From positions 32-64,031 of the forward strand of contig JBAZHQ010000001.1 in NCBI GenBank assembly GCA_041652235.1: a stretch of 64,000 nucleotides of DNA. Reading direction: 5' to 3'. Numbering within the stretch: the stretch's first letter is position 1; every line of letters begins with the position of its first letter. Both the position numbers and the translations under genes were made by a program. This document shows positions 8,455-32,540 of this stretch, piece by piece. Under the pieces are notes generated by a model. That model was not told the DNA's origin. It saw only the letters and a program-made list of their open reading frames with translations, and searched no databases. This DNA is from Opitutaceae bacterium (GTDB lineage Bacteria > Verrucomicrobiota > Verrucomicrobiia > Opitutales > Opitutaceae).

Positions 8455-9837
8455 CTAGTACGGATCCGTCCAAGTCGGAGTCGCAGCCGCGAAGCCCTGA
8501 TTCCGGATCACGTATCGGGGATCCTTGATGCCGGGCATTCCCATCTCATCGATGAACATCGAGAACACCAACCCACGATCGGCCATCTCGTAGCTGGTCG
8601 GGGCCGCACGAACAACGGTCAAGGGCATGTTCTCGACGTAGAAAAACGCCTTCTTGAAATCGCCGGAGTACCAGATCGTATCGGCAGCAGCAGCACCTGC
8701 GGCCAACAGCGTCGTCCCGCTGTAGTAGCTCAAGGACTGCTGAACGTCGATGTACTTCAGCAGGCCCTGAATGGTGCTGTCCGACGCAACGTCGATGATC
8801 CGCTTGTACGCATACTGCGAAACCATCGGCTCGTTGAATCGACCGGCAATCGGATTCTTGCCGTAGCCCAGCGGGGTTCCGACCGTCGTGGTCGCGGACT
8901 CGTCTCCCTGGCGAACCTGGGTGTCGCTGAGGAGCTTCTCGCAGATGGCCCGGCGTCCGGGCATCACCAGCAGATCACGACACTCGATCGAGATCGGTTG
9001 GCCGGTCTCCTGGTCAACCATGCGAGAGAGGAGCTGGTAGACCTTGTCCAGGCTGGTGTAGTCAACCAGATCGTTGTTGACCAGGTTGACCCAGTTCCCA
9101 GAAATCAGGAAGGTCTTGTAGTTGGTGCCATCGTAGGTGTACGTGTTTCGGATACCGAGAACGGTGTCCAGAACCAGGTACTCCTTGCGAAGCGCTAGGG
9201 TCTGCGAGACAAGCTCGGCATGCTCCAGCACCTGGCGGGTCAGATCGAACATCACAGCCTCGCGGGTCACATCGACCGCGTTCGCGCGGTTCTTCGTGAT
9301 GGGCGAGGTGACGTACCGCTCGGTCAGGGCAGCACGCGGGTGCGACTGACCAGGCTTACGCTCCTGGGCGTAGTCGCCGGGCGTCGAGACACCGATGAAC
9401 TTCTCCTGAACCTTGTTGCTCGGGATGTTCGTGCAAAGCCGGTCGGCCAGGAATTCCGGGCGGTTGTACGCCTCAAGAATCTTGACCTCCAGCAGGCCGG
9501 CGACGGTCTCGTTAAATGCCGTGATGTCGCTGAAGGTGCTCGGGACGATGTCATTCCCGGCTTCGAGAACGTCGCCCTCAAGCTCTTGAAACTTCGGAGC
9601 CGGAGACGAGAGCCTCCGCTCGATGTTCTGCTCGCCGAAGATCGCTGTCGCCAGCGCCTTGAGCGAAACACCCTCCGGCCGAATGGTCTGACTCTCCAGA
9701 ACCGGCCGGCCTTCGGCGTTGCGGTACTTGATGCCCTTCTCGTTGCGAAGGCCAAGCAAGCTATGCATCGAATGAATGAAACCGACCGGACCCCGCTCGG
9801 CATACATCCTTCGTGCATGGTCGATGGAAAACGCCAT
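8455..9837 (-). CDS. Major capsid protein (HK97-fold-like)
   Basis: 460 aa, located after the protease/scaffold and decoration genes and followed by a strong hairpin. Composition is typical of capsid proteins. No database check was possible. Confidence 0.65.
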   Translation of the reverse strand: MAFSIDHARRMYAERGPVGFIHSMHSLLGLRNEKGIKYRNAEGRPVLESQTIRPEGVSLKALATAIFGEQNIERRLSSPAPKFQELEGDVLEAGNDIVPSTFSDITAFNETVAGLLEVKILEAYNRPEFLADRLCTNIPSNKVQEKFIGVSTPGDYAQERKPGQSHPRAALTERYVTSPITKNRANAVDVTREAVMFDLTRQVLEHAELVSQTLALRKEYLVLDTVLGIRNTYTYDGTNYKTFLISGNWVNLVNNDLVDYTSLDKVYQLLSRMVDQETGQPISIECRDLLVMPGRRAICEKLLSDTQVRQGDESATTTVGTPLGYGKNPIAGRFNEPMVSQYAYKRIIDVASDSTIQGLLKYIDVQQSLSYYSGTTLLAAGAAAADTIWYSGDFKKAFFYVENMPLTVVRAAPTSYEMADRGLVFSMFIDEMGMPGIKDPRYVIRNQGFAAATPTWTDPY

Positions 9838-9941
9838 GGTAAACTCTCACTTTTCTCAAAAAGGACGTGGTGGTTAAAACTGGGGATGGCCAATGCAGGC
9901 ACAGCCTACATGACCACCCCCAGCGCTTCGGGGGCGGTCGT

Positions 9942-10874
9942 CTACGCACTCCCCTTGATGATTCCCGCAGCAAGCAACGCAGCCTGAAGAGCGTTGACCA
10001 GCGTGTTGATCGCCGTGATATCGGTGACCGTCGCTGCAAGCTGCGTGTTCAACGCGAGGATATCGACTCGGGCCGCGTTCAGGAACGCAACGGCCGTGTT
10101 GAACGCGGCGTTCGTGTTGAAGCCCCAGGCTTCCGCTGCAGCGGAGTTGGATGCCGTCGCCGCGTTGATCGCAGCACCAATCGTCATGTTGGCAACAGCC
10201 ACCGTCTTGACGATCGCGGCCTGTCCAGCACCGCTCGGCTGCACGACCGGCGTGGCATTCCAGAAACCAAGCTTCTGGGTTGCGCCGGTACCGATCTTGG
10301 TGCCGGTGGTCGTGTTGGCGACGATGTTTGCACCGTCGTCCATCGTGATGCCGGCCGTGTTCAGCACCTGCAGCGCCAGGCTGTACAACGGAAGAACCCG
10401 GCTGATCAGGCAAACCGTGACCGTGGTGACAGCGCCTCCGGAGTCCTTCAGAATGTAACCGATCGCGTCGGCTGCCGTCGTGGTCTTCTTGACCTTGGCG
10501 TCCTCCAAAGCCGTCCCGCTGGACGCCTCCGTTGCGGCAAGCATGTCGCCCTGGTAGTACGTGCCGCTTGCGATGGTCATCGGACCAACGTAGACACGAC
10601 CAACCAGAATGGTGTTTCGCTCCTGCGATGCCGACATCGCCTCCTTGGCAACGCCGAGGAATCGCGGGCCGAAGTACGCCTGGTTGGCGGCCTCGCTGCT
10701 TTGATCCGGCATCTGCGAAGCCGGGTAGGCATGGCCCTGAGCAGAGGTGTCACCGTTCTGCAACGTCAGGCTGCCCGCAGTGTCGCTCCACATCAGATCG
10801 TTGATCGACACCGCAATTCCACCGTCAAACGGGCAGTCGACTTTGTCGACATCGCCCCAATACGTAGAACTCAT
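9942..10874 (-). CDS. Head decoration / capsid-associated protein
   Basis: 310 aa between the scaffold-protease and the capsid gene. The C-terminus is Ala/Thr/Asn-rich and repetitive. Confidence 0.4.
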   Translation of the reverse strand: MSSTYWGDVDKVDCPFDGGIAVSINDLMWSDTAGSLTLQNGDTSAQGHAYPASQMPDQSSEAANQAYFGPRFLGVAKEAMSASQERNTILVGRVYVGPMTIASGTYYQGDMLAATEASSGTALEDAKVKKTTTAADAIGYILKDSGGAVTTVTVCLISRVLPLYSLALQVLNTAGITMDDGANIVANTTTGTKIGTGATQKLGFWNATPVVQPSGAGQAAIVKTVAVANMTIGAAINAATASNSAAAEAWGFNTNAAFNTAVAFLNAARVDILALNTQLAATVTDITAINTLVNALQAALLAAGIIKGSA

Positions 10875-10945
10875 CTTTACACCCTTCGAAAATGGGGGAG
10901 GTTTGGCAGGTCCGCCGAGGTGGCCCCCTGCTCGTCGCTATGAGG

Positions 10946-12133
10946 TTAGCGAGCTGCCATCAGCAGCATGGCGTCGTCCTTGAGTTGCTCCTTGGACAAC
11001 ACAGACGCGGTGCTCTTATCCTTGTCCTGGCCCTCCTTAAAGGATTCCATGACCGATCCGCTCTTCGGCTTGGCGGAATTGCCCGCACCCATCTTCGGCC
11101 AGCTCTCGGCCAGGGCCTTGCGATCCGCCACGGGCACCGCAAGCAGTGCCTTAACCCGGATCGAGGTCGGATGCACGTGCGCCGACTCGAGAACGTCCAG
11201 CGCCTGCTCATAGTCGGGCTTGGCGGCCTTGCCCTTCTGCTTCGCGGACTCTTCCGAATCGTCACCCCCGAAATCGCCGCCGAAATCGCCGCCGTCGTCG
11301 GCAGCGGGCTCCTCGGCGGCCGGCTCCTCCTCTTCGTCGGCGAGAGCCTTGATGATCGCGTCGATCTTCTTCTGCAGCTCGCTCAGCATCGATTTCCTGG
11401 TGGCCTTGTCGGTCTTGGGATCCTTGATCGCGGGAAGGTACTTCGCCAGGATCGCGTCGATGGCGACATCCACAGGATCGCTCTCAGTTGCCGCAGCAGC
11501 CCCCGCATCGACGGCTCCGTCGCCGGCCAGGCTGCCCTCGTCGGCAATCGCGTCGTCCCCGGCCATACCCTGTGTATGGGGATCATTCATACTCTCATCC
11601 TCACTTTCAAAAATAGATGAAGTGGTTGCCGGATCCGCGACAAGGTCGACGGATCGCACCCTGGTTATACTCTCGTGAATGATCCCGCCGTTCCCGTCGG
11701 GAACCTGGATCGTCTTCGCGTTGTGGGAGAATCCGAAAATCTCAGGCATCGACTCCGCAGCCTCGCAGGCACGATCCGCGAACGGGTGCGCCTTCAAATA
11801 GTGCAAGTCCGCGTACGCCCCGTCTTCGCCGATGCGGACGTTGTGGAAAATGCCGAAGCGGTCTTCGATGTTCCGGTCAACCCCAGGCGACTCCCGATGG
11901 GGGTGGTTCAGATTGCACTTGGCCCCCTCGTACATCGACTTCGCCGCCTCCAGGCACTCCTTGGAGTACCTGCCCCCGTTCTTGGACTGGAATCCGACAA
12001 CCTTGGCCCCGTAGATGATGCCGGCCTCCCGGTCAACCTTGCACGGACGGGAGGCCTGAAAGTACTCGTAGACATCCCGCTCAACCTTTCGCGGCTTGAA
12101 CGATCCCGTCTTCATATTACTGGGCTTTGGCAT
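10946..12133 (-). CDS. Prohead protease fused to an acidic scaffold-like domain
   Basis: ATG 12133 lies 7 nt after GGGAGG (the track start is a TTG). RVRSVDLVADPA resembles the S.V..PA motif of prohead proteases. The C-terminal half is acidic, Ala-rich and helical (DGGDFGGDFGGDD, EEEEPAAEEP). Confidence 0.55.
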   Translation of the reverse strand: MPKPSNMKTGSFKPRKVERDVYEYFQASRPCKVDREAGIIYGAKVVGFQSKNGGRYSKECLEAAKSMYEGAKCNLNHPHRESPGVDRNIEDRFGIFHNVRIGEDGAYADLHYLKAHPFADRACEAAESMPEIFGFSHNAKTIQVPDGNGGIIHESITRVRSVDLVADPATTSSIFESEDESMNDPHTQGMAGDDAIADEGSLAGDGAVDAGAAAATESDPVDVAIDAILAKYLPAIKDPKTDKATRKSMLSELQKKIDAIIKALADEEEEPAAEEPAADDGGDFGGDFGGDDSEESAKQKGKAAKPDYEQALDVLESAHVHPTSIRVKALLAVPVADRKALAESWPKMGAGNSAKPKSGSVMESFKEGQDKDKSTASVLSKEQLKDDAMLLMAAR

Positions 12134-12179
12134 GGTCCCGCCTCCCAAAGTTTAAGGTAAACGAAAACTTGCTCCCCGT

Positions 12180-12208
12180 ATTATACCTCAGAATCAAGGG
12201 TTCACCAA
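12180..12208 (-). promoter_or_regulatory. Sigma70-like promoter upstream of the protease-scaffold gene
   Basis: Minus strand reads TTGGTG (12208..12203), 17 nt, TATAAT (12185..12180), inside the 70-nt intergenic gap. Confidence 0.45.
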
Positions 12209-12218
12209 ACACTAGTTG

Positions 12219-12773
12219 CTAGTCTATTGGCACCACTCGACCCTGATCTACCCATTTCCGATACAAAGATCTCTCCAGATCCGCACGATGGCTCAGCCCC
12301 GGTGGAAGGTCGTTCTTGGTGTCCCACAAGTAGTTGTCGAACGTTTCCCCGGCCCACCAGCCCGCCGTGTGTACCACGGGAAATTCCTGCAGCAAACAGA
12401 CCAAGGCCATCAACCCAGTGCTCGGCCAACCGTCTTTCTGGCCAAGCAGCATCATCGCACCGATCTCGGTCTCGCGGGGTATTTGCTCCCAATCATCGTT
12501 TAGGTCGAGTCCGTACGGCCGATACCATACCTTCCTGCATTTGGCTGGGGCAGATGGCACGCATGCCGAAGCAAACCATATCGTAACCCGCGAACCCACG
12601 TCCTCGGCGTACTCCCCGCCAAACGGATGCTCGTTAAATCGCACGACTTCGCCGAACGAATCGATCACATGACCAAGTCCCCGGCCGGATAACGACTTGG
12701 TTGCGGTGACCGCGACGACGCCTCTTGGTATAGATGCGGATACCTTCCCGACTTCAGCATCAATTCCATCCAT
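12219..12773 (-). CDS. GT29-like (sialyltransferase-like) glycosyltransferase
   Basis: GLGHVIDSFGEVVRFNEHPFGGEYAEDVGSRVTIW resembles sialyl motif L (G..ID....V.R.N....Y..DVGS). WPSTGLMALVCLLQEFPVVHTAGWW resembles motif S (PSTG...A......V...G). ATG is preceded by GGAGGAGGGGG. Confidence 0.5.
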   Translation of the reverse strand: MDGIDAEVGKVSASIPRGVVAVTATKSLSGRGLGHVIDSFGEVVRFNEHPFGGEYAEDVGSRVTIWFASACVPSAPAKCRKVWYRPYGLDLNDDWEQIPRETEIGAMMLLGQKDGWPSTGLMALVCLLQEFPVVHTAGWWAGETFDNYLWDTKNDLPPGLSHRADLERSLYRKWVDQGRVVPID

Positions 12774-13414
12774 AACAGATCCCCCTCCTCATCTATGTCT
12801 AGGTGAGGATCGTTGTGAACGACCCCCTTGATCCGCAGTTGAGCCCAAAACGCGGCCATATCCGAGAAATCCTGCTGAAGGATTCTCGGCCATAGTGCCG
12901 CAACACACCCGGAAAACGCGTGAATCTGCGGCATATCCTGCGACAAACCTGTCGGAGCAACCATTTCTACCGTCCCATCCACTTGAAGATGTGCGAGAAA
13001 TCCAAGCGGGAGGGAACGAACCATAGTCTGAACAACGTCGTGTTGATCGGTCAGGGCCTCGGCTGTCCGGTGAATCAGCAGGGGCGAATAGCAGGGCGAC
13101 GTCGTCGTTGTCGAAACGATCACGTCTACCTTCCACCGCAGATGTTCTACCGCGTATAACCACGCACGATGAATCGCACGAATCGAATTTTCGTGAACCA
13201 CCGTCGGTTCCCGGCAAACTTCCACCCCGAAATTAGTCGCGACCTTTGCAATGCTGTCGTCATCCGTAACCACGATCGTCCGCCACAGAAGGCCGGCCGA
13301 TGCTATATTCCGCATCGCGTACCACATAAGTGGTTTCCCAAGCACGCGCCGCATGTTTTTCCCAGGAACTCGTGTTGACCCACCCCGGGCCGCAACAACG
13401 CTGAGCAGATTCAT
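12665..13414 (-). CDS. neuA: CMP-nonulosonic acid (NeuA-like) cytidylyltransferase
   Basis: N-terminal AARGGSTRVPGKNMRRVLGKPLMWY is the classic acylneuraminate cytidylyltransferase P-loop. The last 109 nt overlap the GT29-like gene out of frame. Confidence 0.75.
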   Translation of the reverse strand: MNLLSVVAARGGSTRVPGKNMRRVLGKPLMWYAMRNIASAGLLWRTIVVTDDDSIAKVATNFGVEVCREPTVVHENSIRAIHRAWLYAVEHLRWKVDVIVSTTTTSPCYSPLLIHRTAEALTDQHDVVQTMVRSLPLGFLAHLQVDGTVEMVAPTGLSQDMPQIHAFSGCVAALWPRILQQDFSDMAAFWAQLRIKGVVHNDPHLDIDEEGDLLWMELMLKSGRYPHLYQEASSRSPQPSRYPAGDLVM

Positions 13415-14781
13415 TTCAGATCCTCCGTGTTGATCCGATCGAACGCCATCAAGGTATTCTTGAAGTACGGAAGCGTCGTCACAGAATTTCGAAGCATGGT
13501 CTCCACGACCAGGTTTCTGCTGAATCCCCGGCTAAGCATCTGCTCCGTGACCCATTCGTTCGTCTGGCAATTCACATGGCCGTGTCCCACTTGGCCCGGG
13601 ACGGCCCAGGATAGCACCACCTGCCGTTCGGCCATCCGGCAAATATTGTCCAGCAGGGCGTCCTGGTATTGAGCCGGCACGTGTTCGCCCACCTCAAGGC
13701 ACAGGACGGCGTCTGAGGGGCGGATGCCGAGGGGCTCGGTTAGATCCGCCTCCCCATACAAACAGCCCTTGTCGGCCGTTCCTGGCGTCCCGTCGACCCC
13801 GAAAACCGGGACGCCAGCCTTGTCCAGGGCCTCGACGTACCACCCCCTCCCGCACCCCAGGTCTACCACCCGATACTCAGCAGCCCGCCACATCCGGCAC
13901 AGGGCCTTTTCCAGGCCCTCGTCGTGCTGCGCCCCGTCGGGCAGCTCCTCCAACCAGATGCCGTGATCGTCGATCTTTCCCTCGATGGCCTTCTGGGCCT
14001 CCACAAGCCGCTGTGCCGCCAAATCGCCCTTCTGGTCCACCTCCCAGTCTCCCCAGGGAGCTGCTGACGTGAACGGGATCGGACCAACATGCTGTACCGC
14101 GACCTTACGGGTCGCATACAGCTTCGCTCCGTAGCCGTGCAAGATCCGGCTGAGCATCCAATCCTCGGTCTCCGTCTGCGTCTCCCAGCCGCCCCCAGGA
14201 ACGTAGATAATCCTGTTCCGAATCTCGAAGTGGGGCTCCAGCTCGCCACTATCGCCAACCCGGTCCCAGTACTCCGGCCGCAGATCAAGCAGCATGCACC
14301 CGGTGTTCAAGAGCAGTTTGTATCCCAGCGGCCCGGATTGATCGCCGATGTCGTCGATACAAAAGGTCTCCGGCAGCTTGAAAACCTCATGCATGGTAAG
14401 CCGGCCAAGCGGGTTCCAGCGGTTGTCCTTGGCAACCGCTGTGCTGGTGGTGCCGTGCCCGTCTTTAATCGGCGACACAGCGGCTATCCAGTGTGCGCCG
14501 GTGGCCTGCATCTCTTCGTGCAGCGTGTCCAGCCACCAGGCCGATGGAATGATGTCGGCGTGCAGCATGGCCAGGTGCGTGCATTCGCTCTTCGCCCGCA
14601 GATTCAGAGCGAAGCACAGAGCGCGATTGAAGCTCAGCGCCATGTTGCTGCACGGCGACGGATCCAGCCGCATGATGACCTTACCCTCGCCCTTGCTCAT
14701 CTCGGCGAAGTACGCCTTCGCAGCGAACGGGTTGATGTCCCCGAAGCAGGGCATGTACGCAACGATCTTGTCCATCTCCAT
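13411..14781 (-). CDS. Bifunctional GT-A-like glycosyltransferase / SAM-dependent methyltransferase
   Basis: The N-terminal half has a GT2-like layout (FNRALCFALN...LAMLHADI). The C-terminal half carries methyltransferase motif I, VVDLGCGRGWY, and later LCLEVGEH. Confidence 0.6.
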   Translation of the reverse strand: MEMDKIVAYMPCFGDINPFAAKAYFAEMSKGEGKVIMRLDPSPCSNMALSFNRALCFALNLRAKSECTHLAMLHADIIPSAWWLDTLHEEMQATGAHWIAAVSPIKDGHGTTSTAVAKDNRWNPLGRLTMHEVFKLPETFCIDDIGDQSGPLGYKLLLNTGCMLLDLRPEYWDRVGDSGELEPHFEIRNRIIYVPGGGWETQTETEDWMLSRILHGYGAKLYATRKVAVQHVGPIPFTSAAPWGDWEVDQKGDLAAQRLVEAQKAIEGKIDDHGIWLEELPDGAQHDEGLEKALCRMWRAAEYRVVDLGCGRGWYVEALDKAGVPVFGVDGTPGTADKGCLYGEADLTEPLGIRPSDAVLCLEVGEHVPAQYQDALLDNICRMAERQVVLSWAVPGQVGHGHVNCQTNEWVTEQMLSRGFSRNLVVETMLRNSVTTLPYFKNTLMAFDRINTEDLK

Positions 14782-14811
14782 AACTACCCTCCCAAAGCTA
14801 AGGTTTAAAAA

Positions 14812-16179
14812 CTATTCCCCGACGCTCTCCCGATCATTGTGCGCTTCGTCAGTCCAGGCTTCGCTGATGTTGTCGGCCGTGGGATCCTCGACCTTGTACA
14901 TCTTCTTGTTCAGATAGTAGTATTTGCCGACCATACCTCTGATCCACTTAGCCCCTGGAGGCAGCACTTTAGGTACGATCCCCCTTTGTTTTTCCTGGGG
15001 GAGACTGGTAGGAGACGCTGTGGGCTTGCTGGATTCTAGGCGTCCCAACAGCTCCTTTGCCTCGTCGGCAGTCATCGCATAGTTATTGTGGTCCGTATTT
15101 TTGAAACCATACTTCTCGTAGAACCCCCTGGCCTCGTCAGAGCTGGACAGGGTGATACCCGCATTCTGCCTCACCGCATCGGCCGCCACGTGCCTGAGCA
15201 GTGCCACTCCGACGCCTCGACCCCCGACTACAGCCCCGAAGTGGTCGATGGCGATGCTACCCTCCTCCTTCGGCAGGATCGACGTCGCACCAAGGATCCT
15301 ACCCCGCTCATCCCTGATCACAACGCGGTCTGCCCCTTGTGCCATGACCGCAGCCTCAGCCTCACCGATCGCGTTCTGACTCCCCCCTGACGACCGGATC
15401 TCGTTTGAGAGCTTCTTCCATTCATTCAGCTTAGTTCGAGAAGCAACCATTCCCCCGCCGCCTACCACCTTGCTCCTTGGATGCTTTTGCTCTTCCGCCT
15501 TCTTGTTCCGTGCTCGTGTCTCAGCCGACTTCTCACGGGCTTCGTCAGTCCAGGCTTCGCTGACGCCCATCCCCCGGCCCATCTCGTACCGAAGCTCACA
15601 CCTGCACCTCGGGTGCGCCGGCGGCCCGGTTATAGACACCCGGCCCCAAACATCCCGGGACGTCCCGTTCAACGGCCTGCAAACCGGACATACCCGATCG
15701 TCGCGTGCCGTCACCCAAATCACGTCCGGGGCGTCGATCTCCCCAAGGACGACGGCGGTGCCGATCGCACCATACTCGCCGGCCGTCTTCGCCCGGGTCG
15801 TTTCCGTGATCGCGATCTTCTCGGCCCGGTCCTCACCAAACTGCGGTGCGTAGTCCGCCTCCGCTCCGTCGGCCTTTTTCTCTGATACCGCAGCCTTCGT
15901 GTTCGCCACGATCTGCTTCGCCAGCTCGCGGCTGTACCGCTCGGCCCAATCCCCGGCCTTCTTGCTGGCGTCCTTCAGGTCGACGTCGATGTGGTCCGTT
16001 AACCGGTCGAAGCTCGCCTCGTAGGTACCGGACAGCTTCTTGGCGATCTCCGCCTGAAGATCGGCCCGAAACGCGGCCCAGTCAATACTGGGCAGTTGCT
16101 TTTCGTACCGACGAAACAGCAGCAGCAGAATCGCGGCCAGCTCCAGCTCCCGCTTTTTCCGATCCTTAAGATCCGGCAT
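14812..16179 (-). CDS. MuF/SPP1-gp7-like head morphogenesis protein fused to a GNAT acetyltransferase
   Basis: DDRVCPVCRPLNG...PPAHPRCRC is the MuF signature, and GGRGVGVALLRH...ARGFYEKYGF is GNAT motif A. The two domains are separated by SEAWTDEAREKSAETRARNKK. ATG 16179 follows the upstream TAA (TAACATG). Confidence 0.8.
   Translation of the reverse strand: MPDLKDRKKRELELAAILLLLFRRYEKQLPSIDWAAFRADLQAEIAKKLSGTYEASFDRLTDHIDVDLKDASKKAGDWAERYSRELAKQIVANTKAAVSEKKADGAEADYAPQFGEDRAEKIAITETTRAKTAGEYGAIGTAVVLGEIDAPDVIWVTARDDRVCPVCRPLNGTSRDVWGRVSITGPPAHPRCRCELRYEMGRGMGVSEAWTDEAREKSAETRARNKKAEEQKHPRSKVVGGGGMVASRTKLNEWKKLSNEIRSSGGSQNAIGEAEAAVMAQGADRVVIRDERGRILGATSILPKEEGSIAIDHFGAVVGGRGVGVALLRHVAADAVRQNAGITLSSSDEARGFYEKYGFKNTDHNNYAMTADEAKELLGRLESSKPTASPTSLPQEKQRGIVPKVLPPGAKWIRGMVGKYYYLNKKMYKVEDPTADNISEAWTDEAHNDRESVGE
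14843..14867 (-). repeat. 25-nt repeat encoding SEAWTDEA, copy at the MuF-GNAT C-terminus
   Basis: gcttcgtcagtccaggcttcgctga is identical to 15539-15563. Confidence 0.9.
15539..15563 (-). repeat. 25-nt repeat encoding SEAWTDEA, copy at the MuF/GNAT junction
   Basis: Identical to 14843-14867. Related copies lie at 17262-17285, 17822-17845 and 23325-23348. Confidence 0.85.
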
Positions 16180-16180
16180 G

Positions 16181-17896
16181 TTAGAATCCCCGCATCTCCA
16201 GGTCGGTATACAAAGCGATCTCGGACGCAAACTCCCGGTCAAACGCCTCGTCCCAGGATTCCAGAACGTCGAGGGATTCCTGCACGGAAGGATCCTTGAT
16301 AAGCGTGAATGTTTTGTAGCCCGGATGTGACCGAGTCTCCGCTTTGACCTTGTAGCCGTGGCGACGTGCGATCAAAGCCGCTGCCCGACCGTACAGATCG
16401 ACGCGGCTCTCCTCGGATAAGTTGGCCAGGAAATAAAATCTCCTGGGCCTCTCCTGCGACACAAAGCTGTCCAGGGCACCTCCAACCTTCCTGAAAAGCT
16501 CGATGGCTTTCCCCTTCAGTTTTCCGGTGATGCCAAAACCGTAGCCTTCAGATGTGTCCCTGAAATCGAAGTCCCACTCGTTGTTATAATCTTTGTATGC
16601 GCGAGCCCTAAACGGGACGTCACCGACGGAAAAGGTAGTTGTGTAGTTCCCAATGCCTTCTTTCTCCATATTCATCGGCTTTGGGTTGTAGCCCGCGACG
16701 TGCGTGCCCCCAGCAGCTCGTACCGCAGCTCGGCCCGGAGTGCGCAATCTCATCATGCCCTGAGTTGGGTCAGATGTCGGCTGCGCCGGCGTCGGTGCTG
16801 GTGCCGGACGGCTAGTGGGGTTGGCCTGCTCTTTCTCGGTCGCAATAGTGCGCAGCACAGCATCCGGCCCGCCGACCCTCGCGATCTTCTCTACGTCGAT
16901 GTTCTCTTCCTGGGGCGGGGCTGCCGGCTGCGGCTGTGCCGGTCGCTCTGCAGGTTGCTGCCCGGCCGGCCTGTTGATCGGGGCAAGCCGCTCTTTCTCG
17001 GATGAAAACTGCCGAACAAGCTCGTTGGCGTTTTCCTGCCGCTGCCGTCGCGAGATGGGACGGGTTCCCGGCCTGTGCGGACGGCCCAGCTTTTCGGACA
17101 CGGCGTTGTGCATCTCGGCGTTGCGACGTCGCGTTTCCGCCGATAACTCCCGGGCGTGTTCGGTCCACGCCTCCAGCGTCTCGGCGCTTAGATCCGCTCC
17201 CCGGGACACAAGATCGAGAAGGACGGCTTCGTTCATGGGTAACTCCTCTGACTTCCTGCGGGCCTCGTCGGTCCACGCTTCATTGATATCCTCGGATTTA
17301 GGATCGAACGTCCCTCTGTTGCCTGTAGCGGATTTAATCTGATTGGGAGAGAACGCTACAAAAGTAGTTGTTGGCGGACCTCCGAAGGCAAAGTTGCGAA
17401 TGCGATATACTACCACCCCATCATGACCCTTGGCCTTTGCGGTATCAACGATCTTTTGCATGGCCTCTCGCGTGTACAGTTTGCTATTAAAATTGACAAA
17501 GAGTGGATTCTGTACCGACAAATATACAGGCTTCACGTTTAATCCGTGGCCCGACTTAATCTCACCAAACTCTGCCGCGTCTCCGCTATCGCTAGTGAAG
17601 AAAAACACCTGCTCGCTCGTTAGCTTTGACGTATTGAACGTATCAAAATCTGACTTTGTTCCGTGATAGACAACGCGAGGCTTGCCGGACGTATCAACTA
17701 CCCGACTCTTGCCAAACCATTGTCGAAACTGCGGCGTGTCGGTTTGACGAACTCGTGGATGCTTTGTCTCCTCCTGCTTGTTCCGTGCTCGTGTCTCCGC
17801 AGACTTCCTGCGGGCTTCGTCGGTCCAGGCTTCGAGAGTGTCTTCGCTGACAACAGCTCCCCGGGACACAAGATCGAGAAGGACGGCTTCGTTCAT
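16181..17896 (-). CDS. Two-cassette polyvalent protein: leader + ART-like domain, then second leader + Pro/Gln-rich linker + unknown C-terminal domain
   Basis: FRQWFGKSRVVDTSGKPRVVYHGT...FFFTSD...YLSVQNP resembles the ART-like domain of phage polyvalent proteins. The leader MNEAVLLDLVSRGA occurs at residue 1 and again at residue 221. Confidence 0.5.
   Translation of the reverse strand: MNEAVLLDLVSRGAVVSEDTLEAWTDEARRKSAETRARNKQEETKHPRVRQTDTPQFRQWFGKSRVVDTSGKPRVVYHGTKSDFDTFNTSKLTSEQVFFFTSDSGDAAEFGEIKSGHGLNVKPVYLSVQNPLFVNFNSKLYTREAMQKIVDTAKAKGHDGVVVYRIRNFAFGGPPTTTFVAFSPNQIKSATGNRGTFDPKSEDINEAWTDEARRKSEELPMNEAVLLDLVSRGADLSAETLEAWTEHARELSAETRRRNAEMHNAVSEKLGRPHRPGTRPISRRQRQENANELVRQFSSEKERLAPINRPAGQQPAERPAQPQPAAPPQEENIDVEKIARVGGPDAVLRTIATEKEQANPTSRPAPAPTPAQPTSDPTQGMMRLRTPGRAAVRAAGGTHVAGYNPKPMNMEKEGIGNYTTTFSVGDVPFRARAYKDYNNEWDFDFRDTSEGYGFGITGKLKGKAIELFRKVGGALDSFVSQERPRRFYFLANLSEESRVDLYGRAAALIARRHGYKVKAETRSHPGYKTFTLIKDPSVQESLDVLESWDEAFDREFASEIALYTDLEMRGF
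17196..17247 (-). repeat. 52-nt exact repeat, copy 1 (cassette junction with SD and ATG)
   Basis: gctccccgggacacaagatcgagaaggacggcttcgttcatgggtaactcct is identical to 17856-17907. Confidence 0.9.
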
Positions 17897-17907
17897 GGGT
17901 AACTCCT
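17856..17907 (-). repeat. 52-nt exact repeat, copy 2
   Basis: Identical to 17196-17247. It covers the RBS, the ATG and the first 13 codons of the cassette leader. Confidence 0.9.
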
Positions 17908-18184
17908 ACCGTAGCCCCGCTTCGCGTAAACTTCGGTCCATAGCGGCGTCCTGCTCCCGCCGCAGACGTTCCATCTCCAGCTTCAAAAGCTCCTGGCGAT
18001 GCTGATACTCAGCCTCGTCCCGCTGCCGCTCGATCTCCCCGATGGCCTGCTGCTTGCGGTATCCCTCCGCGTAAGCCGCCTGCATCTGCTGCTCTAGCGT
18101 GGGCTCGGGTTTAACGATCTCAACCCGTGTCGGCTTGCAGCCCAAGAGCAGGACCAACGCCATACAAACTGCTGTCGTTCTCAT
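17906..18184 (-). CDS. Small lipoprotein with a coiled-coil tail (92 aa)
   Basis: Only the last 92 codons of track ORF 17906..19000 look real. MRTTAVCMALVLLLGC carries a lipobox L-L-G-C. The ATG forms an ATGA overlap with the portal stop at 18181-18184. Confidence 0.55.
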   Translation of the reverse strand: MRTTAVCMALVLLLGCKPTRVEIVKPEPTLEQQMQAAYAEGYRKQQAIGEIERQRDEAEYQHRQELLKLEMERLRREQDAAMDRSLREAGLR

Positions 18185-20388
18185 GGATAGTTCCCCCAAA
18201 GGATTTCTGATGCCTGCTGCAACGATTCGAAGGCGGGCTGCTCCTCGCCGGATACAAACTGCTGCGCCGGCTGCTGCTCCGGCTCCTGGCCCGCTGGAAT
18301 GGATGGATCGGCTGCCACGCCAGATGGCGGCTCCACGGGCTCCGCTTTCAGGCTGATGTCGGCCTGGGCCTTCACGATCCGCTCCGCTCGGTCGGCCTTC
18401 AGCCCCAACCCCACCAGCAGCTCGGCCGCCGCCTCCGGTGCGATCGTCTTGGCCGAAACCTGCCCCAGCAGCTCGATCGCCGCCGACACCTGCGTTCCGT
18501 TCATGGCCTGCGACGACGGCACCTCCAGCCCGGCGTCGGAGTTGCTGTTTGTATCGCCTCCCTCCTCCGGCTGTTCCGGCTGTGGCTCCGGCTGTGGCGC
18601 TGTTGGCACTGGCCCCTGCACAGCCCCCTCCACGGGAGGTTCCGGCTGGCTCGGCTTCGCCCCGGACGTCGGTGGGGCCTGCACGGGTTCCGTATTGGCC
18701 TCGTCTAGGCCCCCAGCGGCCCCGTCCTGGCCCGGTTGCCCCTGGCCTTGGGCTTTGGCCCCCTTCTTCACTTCGTCGTCGTAGTCGAGCCCAGAACGGC
18801 TTGCCGCCTCGGTCGGAGACAGCAGCCCGGCGTTCATTAGCTCCAGATCCCGTTGCGTGTCCTTCGCTCGGTCCCGCACGTCGATCTGCGGCCCCGTCAG
18901 CACGAACTCCACGGCGTGTTGCAGATCCTTCCACGCGACCCGCCCAAACCGGCCGGCCTTCCAGTTGAAGAACACAACCTTCCAGTAGACCGATTTCCAC
19001 AGGTTCTCGTGCTTGAATTGCCGCTTTTCGATCTCCTTGACGAACGGGCTGCCGGCCTCAAGGATGCTCGCATAGTTGCTATTCGACGCGGACCCCGTGA
19101 TCATATGCTCGGGCATGGACCAGATCTGGGCGATCGACCGCAGCATCCCCTCAAAGATGCTGACTAGCCCGGACGCCATGCTTTGCTGGATCCACGGTGG
19201 GGGAACGAACTTCTGGTTCGCACCCAAATACAAAGTGGTCCCCGGCTGGTACGTCTGCTGGTAGCTCGTCCGTGTCCCGCCTTTGTAGGTCGCCGTATTC
19301 GTCTGCCAGTCCGCCGCCGACATAGTCGCTGAGCTTACCTGGCTCTGGGTCGTCCCCGGGGCCATCTCGCGGATCCACGCGATCGCGGATTGGATAGCCC
19401 CGGCGTGCGTCAGGTTCCGGATCATCTTGCGGGCAAGCTCGACGTCGCCGGTGACCGGCCAAAAGTCCGATACACCACGCTTGATGTTCCGGTCGGTGTT
19501 GCTCTTGCGGGACTCCATCCAGGTGTTCCCGCCGCTCGCGGGCGGGTAGCACGGGTTGGCCCCGCCAGGAAGATAGTCCCAGTCAACCGGGTCGTTCGTC
19601 CATTGCACGTAATAGCCGTGACGGTTGCACGCATCGCCCTTGGTCGTGTGGATGCCGAACGACCAGTTGCTGTCGAACGACAGCCCGCTTTCGGCCTCGT
19701 CGATATGCTCACACAACCAATCCTCAAGGTCTCGGTGATTCGTCGGCTCGCTCACCTGGTCCGGCTCGACCACGCGGATGTCTACGCGGCCCTCGCCCCG
19801 GTTCCAAAGCCCGAGATACACCTCGCCGTCCCGGATGTCGCGGCGCAGAACTTCCTGGTCCAGATCGCCGGTGATCCCGTTCAACTCGTCGAACTCGTCA
19901 AGGACGGTCTCGATCTTCCTGAGCAGCTCCTTGGGGGCGTCCCGCTTCGTCGTGACCTTCCTGGTGAACCCCGTCGAGATCGTATAGTTCTCCAGCTTGT
20001 TCAAAATTCCGAAGCAGGTCTTGTTATAGGCCGAGAGCAGCCGCACCGTACCGCGAATCGCAGCCAGCTCCGGCTCGCTGACCCAGTACGGCCAGTTGCG
20101 ACCCTCCTGCCGATCCGTCTTGCTGGTATAGGTCGCTGCGTACGCTTGGTAGCCGAAGTTGTCGCGGCGGTAATCCTGGATGTCGACGTAGTCCTCGGGA
20201 GCATACAAACCCTCAAGCACCTCCTGGTCGCCGGCGCTGCCGAAGCTACGGTTCGCCGCCGACAAAGCCAGTGCACGATCCAGCACCTTGAATTGCTCCT
20301 CCTGAAGCCGGATGTCCATCTTTAGCTGGTTGGCACGAAATTTCTGCTCCAGCACGTCCACAGCTTCGTTTTCCAGGTCGACCGACAT
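18181..20388 (-). CDS. Portal protein
   Basis: 735 aa, immediately downstream of the terminase, with a Pro/Gln/Glu-rich C-terminal tail. Size and position are typical of portals. Confidence 0.7.
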   Translation of the reverse strand: MSVDLENEAVDVLEQKFRANQLKMDIRLQEEQFKVLDRALALSAANRSFGSAGDQEVLEGLYAPEDYVDIQDYRRDNFGYQAYAATYTSKTDRQEGRNWPYWVSEPELAAIRGTVRLLSAYNKTCFGILNKLENYTISTGFTRKVTTKRDAPKELLRKIETVLDEFDELNGITGDLDQEVLRRDIRDGEVYLGLWNRGEGRVDIRVVEPDQVSEPTNHRDLEDWLCEHIDEAESGLSFDSNWSFGIHTTKGDACNRHGYYVQWTNDPVDWDYLPGGANPCYPPASGGNTWMESRKSNTDRNIKRGVSDFWPVTGDVELARKMIRNLTHAGAIQSAIAWIREMAPGTTQSQVSSATMSAADWQTNTATYKGGTRTSYQQTYQPGTTLYLGANQKFVPPPWIQQSMASGLVSIFEGMLRSIAQIWSMPEHMITGSASNSNYASILEAGSPFVKEIEKRQFKHENLWKSVYWKVVFFNWKAGRFGRVAWKDLQHAVEFVLTGPQIDVRDRAKDTQRDLELMNAGLLSPTEAASRSGLDYDDEVKKGAKAQGQGQPGQDGAAGGLDEANTEPVQAPPTSGAKPSQPEPPVEGAVQGPVPTAPQPEPQPEQPEEGGDTNSNSDAGLEVPSSQAMNGTQVSAAIELLGQVSAKTIAPEAAAELLVGLGLKADRAERIVKAQADISLKAEPVEPPSGVAADPSIPAGQEPEQQPAQQFVSGEEQPAFESLQQASEILWGNYP

Positions 20389-22827: not shown

Positions 22828-23415
22828 TTATCGTGCCCAGGGAGGCGTTGACAGAGAAGTAAACACCACGTAAGCATCGATACTGTCCCCACCCTGTGAC
22901 CCGTAGGGAACGTCCGGAAGCACCGCCCCGTCATATCCCTTTGCAGTCAGCTTCCGCAACAAACTTCGCACGGCGTCCTCCCCAAAGATCTCCGCATCAA
23001 AGAGGCTGGCTGGCGGTGTGTATTCAACCTCGTCGGCGTCCATTCCAATCTGCAACGCGATCTCCTTCACCACGTCAACCGGGGCGGGATTCTTGATACT
23101 GATCTTGGACGCATGAACAGCCCCGCCACCACCAAAGCGGTCGTTATACATATCGACATAGCTTGCCGCCGCGTCCTTGTCCGTGGTGTAGTATGTCACC
23201 AACTTACCCGGGCGAGCCAACCCGCCGTGATACACAGGAAGATCGACAACTGGCTTGGATCGTGACGTCCCGGGCTCGTCCTCCTGCTTGTTTCTGGCCC
23301 GCGTTTCCGCCGACTTCTCGCGGGCTTCGTCAGTCCAGGCTTCGAGAGTGTCCCGGTCGATAGCAGCTCCCCGGGCTTCCAGATCATACAAACTGCTCGC
23401 GTCCACGATCGTCAT
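22828..23415 (-). CDS. Leader-bearing ART-like protein (paralog of the first cassette of 16181..17896)
   Basis: LYDLEARGAAIDRDTLEAWTDEAREKSAETRARNKQE is followed by LPVYHGG...YYTTDKDAAASY...ISIKNPA...KGYDGAVL...AYVVF. This is colinear with VVYHGT...FFFTSDSGDAAEF...LSVQNPL...KGHDGVVV...TFVAF. Confidence 0.45.
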   Translation of the reverse strand: MTIVDASSLYDLEARGAAIDRDTLEAWTDEAREKSAETRARNKQEDEPGTSRSKPVVDLPVYHGGLARPGKLVTYYTTDKDAAASYVDMYNDRFGGGGAVHASKISIKNPAPVDVVKEIALQIGMDADEVEYTPPASLFDAEIFGEDAVRSLLRKLTAKGYDGAVLPDVPYGSQGGDSIDAYVVFTSLSTPPWAR

Positions 23416-32355: not shown

Positions 32356-32540
32356 ACAAAGTGCTCCTTGATCGCTTTGATCGTCCGGACGACTCGCTTG
32401 TACGGATGGTCACAATACAGGTGCATCGCACGCTCCGCATCCCTTCGAAGCTCGTGGGTGAACGGCACCGGACCTATCGACCCCATAAAGGCCAGAGTCT
32501 CCCAAGTCTCCCCGTCTTCGGACCATTCAATCTTCCACAT
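32352..32540 (-). CDS. Hypothetical small protein (62 aa)
   Basis: Internal ATG (MWKIEWSEDGETW) shares one base with the polymerase TGA. Confidence 0.4.
   Translation of the reverse strand: MWKIEWSEDGETWETLAFMGSIGPVPFTHELRRDAERAMHLYCDHPYKRVVRTIKAIKEHFV

Follow-up and report, generated by a model that had tools for sequence, protein, structure and literature searches.

Three minus-strand genes within the head-morphogenesis operon of a phage genome form a cassette that we read, at about even chances, as a late-expressed glycan-decoration module acting on the virion. In this proposal, the GT-A-like domain of a 456-aa fusion protein would attach a sugar to a virion protein, most likely the capsid or a decoration-type protein, and the fused methyltransferase would O-methylate the sugar placed there. 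With CTP, a NeuA-like enzyme would activate a 2-keto-3-deoxy acid sugar made by the host, for which Neu5Ac, legionaminic acid, pseudaminic acid and possibly Kdo are candidates. A minimal GT29-like enzyme (mini-GT29) would then transfer the activated sugar with inversion, His162 of its motif VS serving as the catalytic base, and would add it either as a glycan cap or straight onto protein. If this is true, the particle wears an acidic, methylated, sialic-acid-like glycan coat. A CMP-ulosonic-acid branch (NeuA-like plus GT29-like) for phage virions is not described in the literature that we searched. Gene context favours the virion over the host surface as the target, a reading taken from gene position alone, and accessory genes can also gather at module junctions.

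Phage genome and layout of the cassette

The window, by which we mean the whole 64-kb stretch of DNA analysed, belongs to a 65.9-kb contig assigned to an Opitutaceae MAG. The genome is that of an uncultured, lytic-type tailed phage with a probable host in Verrucomicrobia, the host assignment being based on metagenomic binning. The phage has its own replication set, comprising PolA, a DnaB-like helicase, a RecA-like protein, a gp32-like protein and a clamp loader. The ORFs scanned gave no match to an integrase family, and on these grounds lysogenic seroconversion is less likely.

The cassette genes run in the same direction and occupy positions 12219-14781, where the sequence-only reading had placed three sugar-handling genes (Table 1). 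They are flanked upstream by a MuF-GNAT gene and downstream by a gene for a putative scaffold/protease. The first flank was borne out by PF04233, and the MuF-GNAT protein also matches head-morphogenesis PHROGs, while the protease-scaffold label given to the second rests on position and composition. This 400-aa protein had no Pfam match and no PDB sequence match; it is 44% identical to the product of the gene after MuF in the contig L014 and 60% identical to that of the gene after GT29 in the related phage fragment L016. The cassette genes are packed tightly or overlap between the MuF and scaffold/capsid genes, and a scan of the block 9800-18200, which includes the cassette, showed no terminator-like site on the minus strand. 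The cassette is bracketed by a direct repeat of a leader/RBS motif: CTTTGGGAGG has only two exact sites in the 64 kb, at the leader 14788-14804 and at 12141-12150, and the similarity of the copies extends beyond the exact match. No membrane-like segment was predicted in any of the three cassette proteins, and all three are predicted from sequence to be soluble. When we scanned about 60 window ORFs of at least 150 aa with Pfam, no NeuB/NeuC or other sugar-synthesis families were found, in agreement with the earlier statement that the window has no NeuB/NeuC.

Table 1. Coordinates of the cassette, its domains and motifs, and the surrounding head genes in the window
Feature	Position	Strand	Remarks
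Major capsid protein	8455-9837		PF25209 match
310-aa protein, decoration-protein position	9942-10874		Between putative scaffold/protease and capsid genes
Putative scaffold/protease, 400 aa	10946-12148	-	Named from position and composition; 10946-12133 from the ATG at 12133
Second leader/RBS copy, ACCTTAAACTTTGGGAGG	12141-12158	-	Directly upstream of the putative scaffold/protease ATG at 12133
Minimal GT29-like (sialyltransferase-fold) glycosyltransferase, 184 aa	12219-12773	-	
Sialylmotif VS, H162...E167	12273-12290	-	
Sialylmotif III, YLWD	12321-12332	-	
Sialylmotif S	12357-12428	-	
Sialylmotif L	12576-12719	-	
NeuA-type CMP-ulosonic-acid synthetase, 249 aa	12665-13414	-	Start overlaps upstream stop by 4 nt (ATGA)
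GT-A-like/methyltransferase fusion protein, 456 aa	13411-14781	-	
Class I SAM methyltransferase domain, residues ~294-445	13447-13902	-	
GT-A/GT2-like domain, residues 1-290	13912-14781	-	Weak PF00535 matches in homologues
Leader/RBS motif, ACCTTAGCTTTGGGAGG	14788-14804	-	Directly upstream of the GT-A/methyltransferase start
MuF-like head-morphogenesis protein fused to GNAT acetyltransferase domain	14812-16242	-	PF04233 E=8e-9, PF13673 E=2.5e-8
Portal	18181-20388		

The three predicted enzymes

The two halves of the 456-aa protein, described in the sequence-only reading as a GT-A/methyltransferase fusion, fared differently. The C-terminal half is assigned to the class I SAM methyltransferases by its motif I, VVDLGCGRGWY (residues 305-315, 13837-13869), by PF13489 (29.3 bits vs 27) and PF08241 (24.9 vs 21.2), and by matches of PDB class I methyltransferases at about 1e-4. 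Residues 1-290 had no Pfam match and no PDB sequence match, and a GT-A/GT2-like domain is weakly supported there: PF00535 was weakly matched by 16 of 34 homologues of this domain (best E=2.3e-5) and is precomputed on three further ones, and H74-A-D76, E206-D207 and H231 are candidate GT-A motifs, invariant together with W208. The domain has more than 146 homologues, stand-alone or fused to PF13578, PF01596 or PF13489 methyltransferases, and in one homologue it is joined to a PF03567 sulfotransferase.

The P-loop ARGGSTRVPGKN noted earlier in the NeuA-like gene is present at residues 9-20 of the 249-aa protein (13355-13390), which matched PF02348 (CTP_transf_3) above threshold (E=4.4e-19, 69.6 bits vs 22.6) and found mouse CMP-Neu5Ac synthetase as its best PDB match (1qwj, 6.7e-15). 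When profile A5, which contains three ordinary NeuA-family sequences, was compared with known structures, NeuA structures matched over the full length at 6e-44 to 1e-31, and KdsB matched at 3.9e-16 at best, across the N-terminal half to two-thirds of the profile. These comparisons place the protein in the NeuA/KdsB family, closer to NeuA. Like the CMP-sialic acid synthetases (NeuA and the mammalian CMAS N-domain; PseF, LegF, KdsB), it belongs to the PF02348 fold family and has the P-loop ARGGSxxxPxKN, a TSP motif and a DID metal site; R10, K19, T105-S-P107 and D206-I-D208 are conserved with its relatives. It differs from them in having SG for NG in the sugar-binding region and in a C-terminal tail of about 20 residues that overlaps the next gene. 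Its nearest relative in a word-indexed homologue search was 27% identical (E=1e-7), its identity to named NeuA-family proteins was at most 29%, and the NeuA-like copies in the loci L017 and L018 were 44-47% identical to it. Every NCBIfam cutoff for a substrate-specific equivalog was missed by far (PseF, 58 bits vs 205.7; KdsB models, 35-52 bits vs 155-281), and the sugar could be a nonulosonic acid (NulO) or possibly Kdo.

The 184-aa protein scored 47 bits with PF00777 (GT29), for which the gathering score is 23 (E=2.9e-12); all 55 aligned family members matched PF00777 as well. Its alignment-based AlphaFold2 model had a pLDDT of 86.2 and a pTM of 0.82. When we searched the PDB with this model using Foldseek, ranks 1-30 were all GT29 (probability 1.0, query-normalised TM 0.52-0.72), GT42 CstII came at rank 35, and the fold was GT-A variant 2; viral GT29 proteins in BFVD also matched. 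Profile and fold searches agree with the GT29-like assignment made in the sequence-only reading, and we classify the protein, on sequence and model, as a GT29-type enzyme with predicted transferase activity. That reading had named a 184-aa protein outside GT29 and a cytidylyltransferase in an unrelated family among the outcomes contrary to it; the placements obtained were GT29 and NeuA/KdsB.

Sialylmotifs L and S, which had been claimed from the sequence, were both found. First, motif L, the CMP-donor-binding segment from Rossmann beta1 to the KTT-type strand (residues 19-66, VVAVTATKSLSGRGLGHVIDSFGEVVRFN...DVGSRVTIW), aligns with that of ST6Gal1 and with the family consensus. Second, motif S reads W116-P-S-T-G120 ... 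H135-T-A-G138-W, with G120 invariant across 55 sequences and G138 nearly so. Third, motif III is Y148-L149-W150-D151 against H-Y-[YF] in the family; the general motif, (H/Y)-Y-(Y/F/W)-x, permits Tyr in first place, Leu in second place deviates, and Y-[LI] is likewise found in the two closest relatives. Finally, motif VS is H162-R-A-D-L-E167, in which His162 and Glu167 are nearly invariant in the 55 sequences and invariant in the 8 closest, and the catalytic role of the motif VS His has been described (PMC10225777).

The protein thus resembles the eukaryotic and viral GT29 enzymes (ST3Gal-I, ST6GalNAc-II, ST6Gal-I, ST8Sia-III; those of pox- and herpesviruses) in its fold and in having motifs L, S and VS, the last with its catalytic His and its Glu. 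It differs from them in its length (184 aa vs a catalytic domain of about 270-300 aa), in its YLWD motif III, and in having no membrane anchor, stem or L-S disulfide cysteines. V19/V20 stand at the motif L position of the disulfide Cys, and the maximum 19-residue Kyte-Doolittle average is 1.33, with no membrane segment predicted, both as expected of a cytoplasmic prokaryotic enzyme.

The NeuA-like gene runs at its 3' end into the 5' end of the GT29-like gene, with an overlap of 109 nt (12665-12773, minus strand). The ATG at 12773 is preceded by the Shine-Dalgarno-like GAGGAGGGGG, and residues 18-35, encoded within the overlap, align with sialylmotif L both in ST6Gal1 and across the family, which indicates that the long 184-aa start is right. 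For the same reason we rejected the public 149-aa gene call P0001, whose start is truncated. Homologous NeuA/GT29 gene pairs overlap too, in L017 (by 16 nt) and in L018.

The 184-aa protein belongs to a family of about 180-aa "mini-GT29" proteins (86 clusters at 50% identity, E<=1e-3), members of which also occur as tandem duplications and fusions. GT29-like proteins are less rare in prokaryotes and phages than the sequence-only reading supposed, and bacterial ones had been reported as early as 2018 (PMC5811610). That report, Petit et al. 2018 (PMC5811610), described proteobacterial ST-like sequences and does not contain the word 'phage'; the other GT29 papers that we read mention GT29 in passing or in bacterial or plant settings only. 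The window's enzyme shares with bacterial GT29-like proteins a prokaryotic GT29 domain with sialylmotifs, associated glycan-tailoring domains and a predicted use of CMP-activated ulosonic acids, with Kdo a plausible donor; it differs in being phage-encoded, stand-alone and equipped with its own CMP-sugar synthetase in a head operon. GT29 enzymes can use CMP-Kdo (PMC13171606, PMC11288761), which leaves room for a sugar other than a nonulosonic acid; for plant GT29-like proteins a role in CMP-Kdo transfer has been proposed (PMC11288761).

We also considered that these genes might be a decaying or non-functional acquisition without a current role, the 184-aa protein being a truncated sialyltransferase remnant. 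It falls short of the eukaryotic GT29 catalytic domains by about 100 residues and its motif III is off consensus, the NeuA-like gene is highly divergent, and low GC3 suggests a foreign origin. However, about 180 aa is the normal length in the 86-cluster family, which also has tandem duplications and fusions. The catalytic motifs are invariant, a compact model was obtained with high confidence, and the ORFs are intact with a Shine-Dalgarno-like site upstream. In addition, orthologous NeuA+GT29 pairs at 42-51% identity retain all motifs, indicating purifying selection, and we regard decay as highly improbable.

Related loci

Comparison with other loci pointed to different histories for the two parts of the cassette. 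A GT-A-like gene, with or without a methyltransferase, lies within the head module in six of six other phage contigs examined. Five of them, which are unrelated (L009, L012, L013, L061 and L062), keep it at a fixed position, in the order portal, Phage_capsid_4 capsid, small ORF, GT-A-like gene and Phage_cement_2. In L014, whose head proteins are related to those of the window, the order is MuF, protease-like gene, GT-MT and capsid. The GT-A/methyltransferase gene is thus an old, long-standing resident of the head modules of many phages.

The NeuA+GT29 pair has a GC3 of 0.60-0.64, compared with 0.73-0.81 in neighbouring genes, and it recurs in other contigs, so that it looks like a later, mobile and compositionally distinct two-gene addition. 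These observations contradict the view of the cassette as one insertion. L016 carries a nucleotidyltransferase-like gene, GT29 (46% identical), scaffold/protease and a 310-aa homologue (69% identical) in the window order, and the pair is kept in L017 and L018. A NeuA-type gene was present in 8 of 39 metagenomic mini-GT29 loci, as direct neighbour of the GT29 gene in 4, and a CMP-sugar synthetase gene adjoins or overlaps GT29 in the window, L017, L018, L019, L032 and L039; the seven mini-GT29 loci on IMG/VR viral contigs (L002-L008) contained no NeuA-like or GT-A-like gene. In a low-GC aquatic phage lineage the mini-GT29 gene follows TerL, indicating that the family is not head-bound everywhere.

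The closest arrangement known to us from the literature is that of Cluster O (Corndog-type) mycobacteriophages, in which the portal and capsid-protease genes enclose genes for an O-methyltransferase and for three glycosyltransferases (PMC4351075). The window cassette likewise lies in the head block, upstream of the protease/scaffold gene, with glycosyltransferases and a methyltransferase co-transcribed with structural genes, as the gene layout suggests for the window. It differs in the fusion of the methyltransferase to a glycosyltransferase-like domain, in the extra CMP-ulosonic-acid branch, and in its host, probably a Gram-negative Verrucomicrobium and not an actinobacterium. No homology was detected: neither the GT29-like protein nor the GT-A-like domain had a tblastn match among 50,697 GenBank phage records.

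Candidate targets of the predicted glycan

Seroconverting phages are well known, and the cassette might instead modify the host envelope, a serious rival that we rate as clearly less likely than decoration of the virion. At the cytoplasmic face, a CMP-activated acid sugar and a methylated sugar would be joined to precursors of the host's LPS, capsule or S-layer, and receptor masking would lead to superinfection exclusion or spare the progeny from adsorption to debris, or other surface properties of the host would change. Bacterial GT29-like domains sit in multidomain polysaccharide-type enzymes, fused to GT2, pyruvyl transferase or methyltransferase, and the capsule locus of E. coli K6 encodes a GT29-GT107 protein (PMC13171606). 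Among species-representative genomes, the close GT29 subfamily had four matches, every one in a Verrucomicrobiota MAG, suggesting a host-derived gene for host-type glycans, and cyanophage KdsA/KdsB with glycosyltransferases have been read as modifying the host cell wall (PMC12801897). However, the cassette lies in the late head operon, the phage has a full replication module, and late expression would leave little time to remodel an envelope. Its three soluble proteins are accompanied by no flippase, acyltransferase or membrane protein, and a GT-A-like gene fixed between capsid and cement genes in five unrelated contigs is hard to explain by an envelope target.

A non-structural target, either hypermodified bases of phage DNA or internal or ejected head proteins such as MuF-GNAT and the ADP-ribosyltransferase, seems improbable to us. 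The window encodes an Amidoligase_2 and a glutamine amidotransferase, and enzymes of these types occur in base-hypermodification systems. The cassette directly follows the genes for packaged/ejected-type proteins, MuF-GNAT and ART-PolyVal, and in the low-GC aquatic phages mini-GT29 lies a few kb from a Tet/JBP dioxygenase gene. Phage glycosyltransferases have been described as hypermodifying DNA (Pyle et al. 2024, as cited in PMC12619734). On the other hand, searches of the window brought up no hydroxymethylase, Tet/JBP or DNA glycosyltransferase family, we know of no CMP-ulosonate-dependent DNA glycosyltransferase, and the genes conserved next to members of the GT-A-like family encode capsid and cement proteins and do not belong to DNA metabolism.

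For decoration of the virion, the motility-associated factor (Maf) flagellin glycosyltransferases offer a functional analogy: they attach Pse, Leg, Neu5Ac or Kdo by direct O-linkage to Ser/Thr (bioRxiv 10.1101/2020.06.03.131540), which is a cytoplasmic transfer of CMP-activated ulosonic acids onto a self-assembling protein, as would be capsid decoration. The window's transferases are not of this family; no Maf/MptE-like Pfam family was among the matches at E<=0.1. When the 184-aa model was compared with the structures in BFVD, an MptE-like phage protein appeared as a marginal match at rank 20.

Position of the cassette in the phage genome

The sequence-only reading had placed three sugar-handling genes inside the head-morphogenesis block, and three minus-strand ORFs encoding proteins of 184, 249 and 456 amino acids were found at exactly its coordinates. 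In the direction of transcription, the portal, ART-PolyVal and MuF-GNAT genes lie upstream of this cassette, and the genes for a putative scaffold/protease, a 310-aa protein and the major capsid protein lie downstream (Table). The cassette genes and their direct neighbours are co-directional and tightly spaced, with a 30-nt gap before the cassette, overlaps of 4 and 109 nt within it, and an 85-nt gap behind it. A promoter and terminator scan of the coding strand of the block gave no convincing internal signals and no terminator-like site. The 400-aa and 310-aa proteins downstream had no sequence relatives in the PDB, and the protease label of the former therefore remains putative.

The window also encodes PolA, a DnaB-like helicase, an SNF2 helicase, RecA-like, gp32-like and SbcCD-like proteins and a clamp loader. 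Since this replication module is present, and since no integrase family was found among the ORFs scanned and no tRNA in the window, we consider the window to be the genome of a lytic-type tailed phage. In the family A DNA polymerase, the 3'-5' exonuclease domain is preceded by an N-terminal uracil-DNA-glycosylase-superfamily domain (PF03167, E=1e-22). The replication side also contains two proteins, GATase_6 (a glutamine amidotransferase) and Amidoligase_2, of a kind that is found together in systems for peptide tagging or base hypermodification; Tet/JBP and hydroxymethylase families were not seen in the window.

The 456-aa product is identical to MFA5262191.1, which is annotated as 'MAG: ... 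[Opitutaceae bacterium]' and lies on a 65,917-bp contig, indicating that binning had assigned the phage contig to a Verrucomicrobial MAG. The cassette is matched at 100% identity by a Logan contig of 4.7 kb, which thus adds no independent evolutionary information. The phage is present in the samples SRR18595300 and JGI 3300014205. When 50,697 GenBank phage records were compared with the 8-21 kb region of the window by megablast, no match was obtained, and tblastn of the same records with the GT29-like protein and two relatives, and with the GT-A-like domain and one relative, gave none either.

Two of the neighbouring proteins, the MuF-GNAT fusion and the 571-aa ART-PolyVal protein, are likely packaged or ejected effectors. 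A peptide motif, (L/S/N)EAWT(D/E)(E/H)A, usually followed by R-x-KSAETRARNK, occurs in six copies. The ART-PolyVal protein has three of them, the MuF-GNAT protein two and a 195-aa ORF one, and they tend to fall at what look like domain boundaries. The motif could serve in protease cleavage or as a linker, or it could direct the packaging or targeting of internal head proteins.

Table. Coordinates of the cassette and of other features in the window.
Feature	Position	Strand	Remarks
Tail-region protein	2417-3136		
Major capsid protein	8455-9837		downstream of cassette; PF25209
310-aa protein	9942-10874		downstream of cassette
400-aa acidic Ala-rich protein, putative scaffold/protease	10946-12148		downstream of cassette; likely start ATG at 12133
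Direct repeat, copy at scaffold/protease start	12141-12158	minus	
GT29-like protein, 184 aa	12219-12773	minus	cassette
NeuA-like protein, 249 aa	12665-13414	minus	cassette
GT-A-like+methyltransferase protein, 456 aa	13411-14781	minus	cassette
Direct repeat, copy at 456-aa protein start	14788-14804	minus	
MuF head-morphogenesis protein fused to GNAT acetyltransferase domain	14812-16242		immediately upstream of cassette
571-aa protein with ART-PolyVal ADP-ribosyltransferase domain	16181-17896		upstream of cassette; beside portal
Portal	18181-20388		upstream of cassette; PF05136
Large terminase subunit	20737-22275		
195-aa ORF	22828-23415		
EAWT-motif copies	14842-14862, 15538-15558, 17153-17173, 17261-17281, 17813-17833, 23323-23343	minus	
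Family A DNA polymerase	32540-35143		
Glutamine amidotransferase (GATase_6) and Amidoligase_2	41015-41689 and 43162-44016		
Tail tube protein	62467-63312		

Enzyme families of the three products

The proposal that the 184-aa protein resembles GT29 sialyltransferases was borne out by the Pfam GT29 model PF00777 (47 bits at E=2.9e-12; gathering score 23) and by fold comparison. A word-indexed homologue search returned matches from the same phage only, and when HMMER was run against the full set of 1.84 billion cluster representatives, 86 relatives were obtained at E<=1e-3, mostly of 170-200 aa, which we call mini-GT29; all 55 aligned relatives matched PF00777 individually. GT29 is defined by four sialylmotifs (PMC10225777). 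In the 184-aa protein, motif L corresponds to residues 19-66, motif S to W116-PSTG ... G138-W and motif VS to H162-xxxx-E167, both residues of which are nearly invariant in the alignment, while the motif III position reads Y148-L-W-D compared with H-Y-[YF] in the family. AlphaFold2 on the single sequence was unusable (pLDDT 31), and with the 55-sequence alignment it gave a model with pLDDT 86.2 and pTM 0.82. When this model was compared with the PDB using Foldseek, ranks 1-30 were all GT29 sialyltransferases (ST6GalNAc-II, ST3Gal-I, ST6Gal-I and ST8Sia-III) at probability 1.0 and query-normalised TM of 0.52-0.72, and CstII, a GT42 enzyme from bacteria, ranked 35th. The top predicted viral structures were herpesvirus and poxvirus sialyltransferases, Mimiviridae GT29 and a few uncultured-Caudovirales proteins.

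Compared with eukaryotic GT29 enzymes, the 184-aa protein lacks the membrane anchor, the stem and the conserved L-S cysteine pair, and it has no predicted hydrophobic segment. It amounts to a core that is soluble and cytoplasmic and about 60% as long as the catalytic domain in eukaryotes. The unit of about 180 aa also occurs in tandem duplications (P0017, 539 aa, and P0026, 511 aa, two relatives each with two domains of about 180-200 aa) and in fusions whose partner is GT2, a polysaccharide pyruvyl transferase or a methyltransferase, which shows that it is an autonomous, self-sufficient domain. By family, we regard the protein as a genuine minimal GT29-type enzyme. A truncated pseudogene was ruled out, as the length is the same family-wide and the catalytic motifs are kept; that the cassette as a whole is non-functional seems to us very improbable indeed.

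The GT29-like start, an ATG at 12773, is preceded by GAGGAGGGGG, and residues 18-35 align to motif L, so the long form is correct despite the 109-nt overlap with the NeuA-like gene. Public calls shorten both members of the overlapping pair (12665-12773), the GT29 to 149 aa (P0001), which drops its first beta strand and Gly-rich loop, and the NeuA to 220 aa (P0208). Both calls thereby lose the N-terminal nucleotide-binding motif, indicating that automated annotation under-reports the NeuA+GT29 pair.

For the 249-aa protein, the suggested kinship with CMP-nonulosonic acid synthetases was likewise supported (PF02348, E=4.4e-19). Its closest solved relative is the N-domain of mouse CMP-Neu5Ac synthetase (1qwj, 6.7e-15); structures of KdsB and of NeuA from bacteria come next. 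The P-loop ARGGSTRVPGKN, TDD, TSP and the DID metal site are kept in its relatives; KdsB carries a different motif in place of TSP. A profile built from the window protein, its 44% identical relative in L017 and three ordinary NeuA-family proteins, which bias it, matched NeuA structures over the full length (6e-44 to 1e-31). With KdsB, the match reached 3.9e-16 at best and was confined to the N-terminal half to two-thirds of this profile. Against the NCBIfam equivalogs, the protein scored far below every cutoff. Judged by sequence, its family, NeuA-type cytidylyltransferase, is secure, and a nonulosonic acid is the favoured substrate. Kdo is possibly the substrate instead, particularly since CMP-Kdo transfer has been credited to GT29-type enzymes in bacteria and plants (PMC13171606, PMC11288761).

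The 456-aa protein had been described as a GT-A-like domain fused to a class I SAM methyltransferase. The methyltransferase part stood, as the C-terminal third matched PF13489 and PF08241 above cutoff and contains motif I, VVDLGCGRGWY, while the N-terminal 290 residues could be called a GT-A-like glycosyltransferase only as probable. These residues had no Pfam match of their own, a PDB sequence profile search gave noise only, and the alignments that hhalign made with single GT2-containing proteins were of low probability. The domain belongs to a family of more than 146 homologues of 35-60% identity, either stand-alone (250-290 aa) or with a C-terminal tailoring domain; PF00535 (GT2) was matched weakly by 16 of 34 stand-alone members, with a best E of 2.3e-5. 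H74-x-D76, E206-D207-W208 and H231 are invariant in the family and appear to resemble GT-A metal and base motifs. The C-terminal partners include O-methyltransferase types (PF13578/PF01596), PF13489 and, once, a sulfotransferase, and this swapping of sugar-tailoring partners is the best indirect argument for a glycosyltransferase role.

Recurrence and origin of the cassette genes

A GT-A-like gene, with or without the methyltransferase, was located inside a phage head module in 6/6 other contigs examined. Five unrelated phage contigs of 50-62 kb (L009, L012, L013, L061 and L062) share the order portal, Phage_capsid_4 capsid, small ORF, GT-A-like gene, Phage_cement_2 and head-tail genes, with a separate S49 protease present or absent beside the capsid. 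The contig L014 has the order portal, MuF, 374-aa protein, GT-A-like+methyltransferase gene, 235-aa protein and capsid, and identity to the window counterparts is 27% for its capsid and 44% for its 374-aa protein. The GT-A-like genes thus appear to form a family of head-module enzymes that is widespread and has not been described.

The NeuA+GT29 pair also recurs. In two loci, a NeuA-like gene is followed by a GT29 gene, with identities of 44% and 42% in L017 and of 47% and 51% in L018, where the two genes overlap as well. Among 39 metagenomic mini-GT29 loci, a NeuA-type gene occurs in 8, directly abutting the GT29 in 4, and these counts are lower bounds as many loci are short. A related phage, L016, has the order 232-aa gene, GT29 (46%), scaffold/protease (60%) and homologue of the 310-aa protein (69%). 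Its 232-aa product was not counted as a cytidylyltransferase; its alignments are colinear through the P-loop and the TSP equivalent and non-significant against both the PDB and the NeuA profile.

Three observations bear on the origin of the cassette. First, the GT-A-like+methyltransferase gene and its relatives share the head-module contexts described here. Second, no NeuA or GT29 gene was found in any GT-A-like locus, and none of seven IMG/VR mini-GT29 loci holds a NeuA or GT-A-like gene, indicating that the two parts of the cassette are separable. Third, GC3 is 0.60 in the NeuA gene and 0.64 in the GT29 gene, compared with 0.73-0.81 in the GT-A-like+methyltransferase gene and the head genes. 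Based on these observations and on the recurrence of the NeuA+GT29 pair, we suggest that the GT-A-like+methyltransferase gene is an old resident of the head module, and that NeuA+GT29 is a later two-gene addition. The ART-PolyVal gene also has a low GC3 (0.63). A leader/RBS direct repeat of 17-18 nt, ACCTTA(G/AA)CTTTGGGAGG, brackets the cassette on the minus strand, directly preceding the GT-A-like+methyltransferase and scaffold/protease starts, and these are the only exact CTTTGGGAGG sites in the 64 kb. The repeat could have been left by insertion of the cassette, or both genes could simply share a strong signal for translation.

When one genome for each of 185,579 species was searched with subfamily-specific patterns, the close GT29 subfamily was found in four Verrucomicrobiota MAGs only, two from Opitutales, one from Chthoniobacteraceae and one unclassified. 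Some of their contigs (L057-L060) may be viral, as binned phage, and the Verrucomicrobiota-only matches are consistent with the Opitutaceae bin of the source contig. In a low-GC aquatic phage lineage (IMG/VR contigs L002-L008, GC 30-36%), mini-GT29 holds a conserved position, separated by a few small ORFs from the preceding large terminase subunit gene and followed by unknown, probably structural genes, with no NeuA-like gene nearby. Genes for a Tet/JBP dioxygenase, ParB and a PD-(D/E)XK nuclease lie just upstream of it in L006 (2819-15153).

Proposed glycosylation of the virion

The enzymes of the cassette are real and their combination is unusual. In the mechanism that we propose, the host would supply a free ulosonic acid, since a Pfam scan of window ORFs of at least 150 aa found no sugar-synthesis genes, and the NeuA-like enzyme would convert it to the CMP-sugar. 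The GT-A-like domain would add a neutral sugar, the fused methyltransferase would methylate it, and the mini-GT29 would transfer the CMP-sugar with inversion, using His162 as the base, as in GT29 (PMC10225777). The acceptor would be a head protein. Direct O-linkage of CMP-ulosonic acids to a protein that self-assembles is exemplified by Maf enzymes (bioRxiv 10.1101/2020.06.03.131540).

All three proteins are predicted to be soluble. Their genes are placed in the late head block, and on this gene context we infer an acidic glycan on the virion, which is the key claim. We give virion glycosylation an even chance of being the function of the cassette. Modification of the host envelope, raised in the sequence-only reading and to be weighed against the same solubility and gene placement, seems unlikely, and DNA or internal head proteins as the target distinctly improbable. 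Within virion glycosylation, we put forward tentatively that a tailed phage sialylates its own capsid, such that mini-GT29 and a phage CMP-nonulosonate synthetase using host sugar cap a methylated glycan made by the head-module GT-A-like+methyltransferase protein, a member of a family that would itself be widespread, undescribed and active on capsid or cement proteins.

Most of what is known so far about glycosylated particles of tailed phages comes from mycobacteriophages, in which the modification alters antibody recognition, and the best precedent for the cassette is a Corndog-type (cluster O) mycobacteriophage. The kind of system, a head-operon glycosylation cassette, is known, and what appears new is the CMP-ulosonic-acid/GT29 branch and the fused glycosyltransferase-methyltransferase family. 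Bacterial GT29-like sequences were reported in 2018 in a paper that does not contain the word 'phage' (PMC5811610), and the other GT29 literature examined mentions the family in passing or in bacterial or plant contexts only. Among the top matches for phage-encoded sialyltransferases or CMP-sialic acid synthetases, 'phage-encoded' was absent; a search on phage acylneuraminate cytidylyltransferases gave incidental papers only, and one on nonulosonic acids on phage capsids gave just a review on sialic acids as pathogen receptors. A few uncultured-phage proteins carry a GT29 label in database entries.

If the proposal is true, no earlier phage particle would have been found to bear a nonulosonic-acid glycan, and phages would be part of the gene flow that yielded eukaryotic sialyltransferases, on whose proposed bacterial origin the mini-GT29 family bears. 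A CMP-ulosonic-acid branch, sialic-acid-like or Kdo, would widen virion glycosylation to phages of Gram-negative environmental hosts and to acidic sugars, which would affect the charge and stability of particles, their loss to grazing or adsorption, and how they are recognised by immune systems. The mini-GT29 family, at about 180 aa, defines a minimal soluble GT29 catalytic core of use in enzymology and glyco-engineering. The GT-A-like gene, with or without the methyltransferase, between capsid and cement genes of many uncultured phages points to a common, unstudied head-modification system.

In the tail region, a separate protein contains a concanavalin-A-like/Laminin_G_3 domain (E=1.4e-18) and is possibly a carbohydrate-binding receptor-recognition protein.
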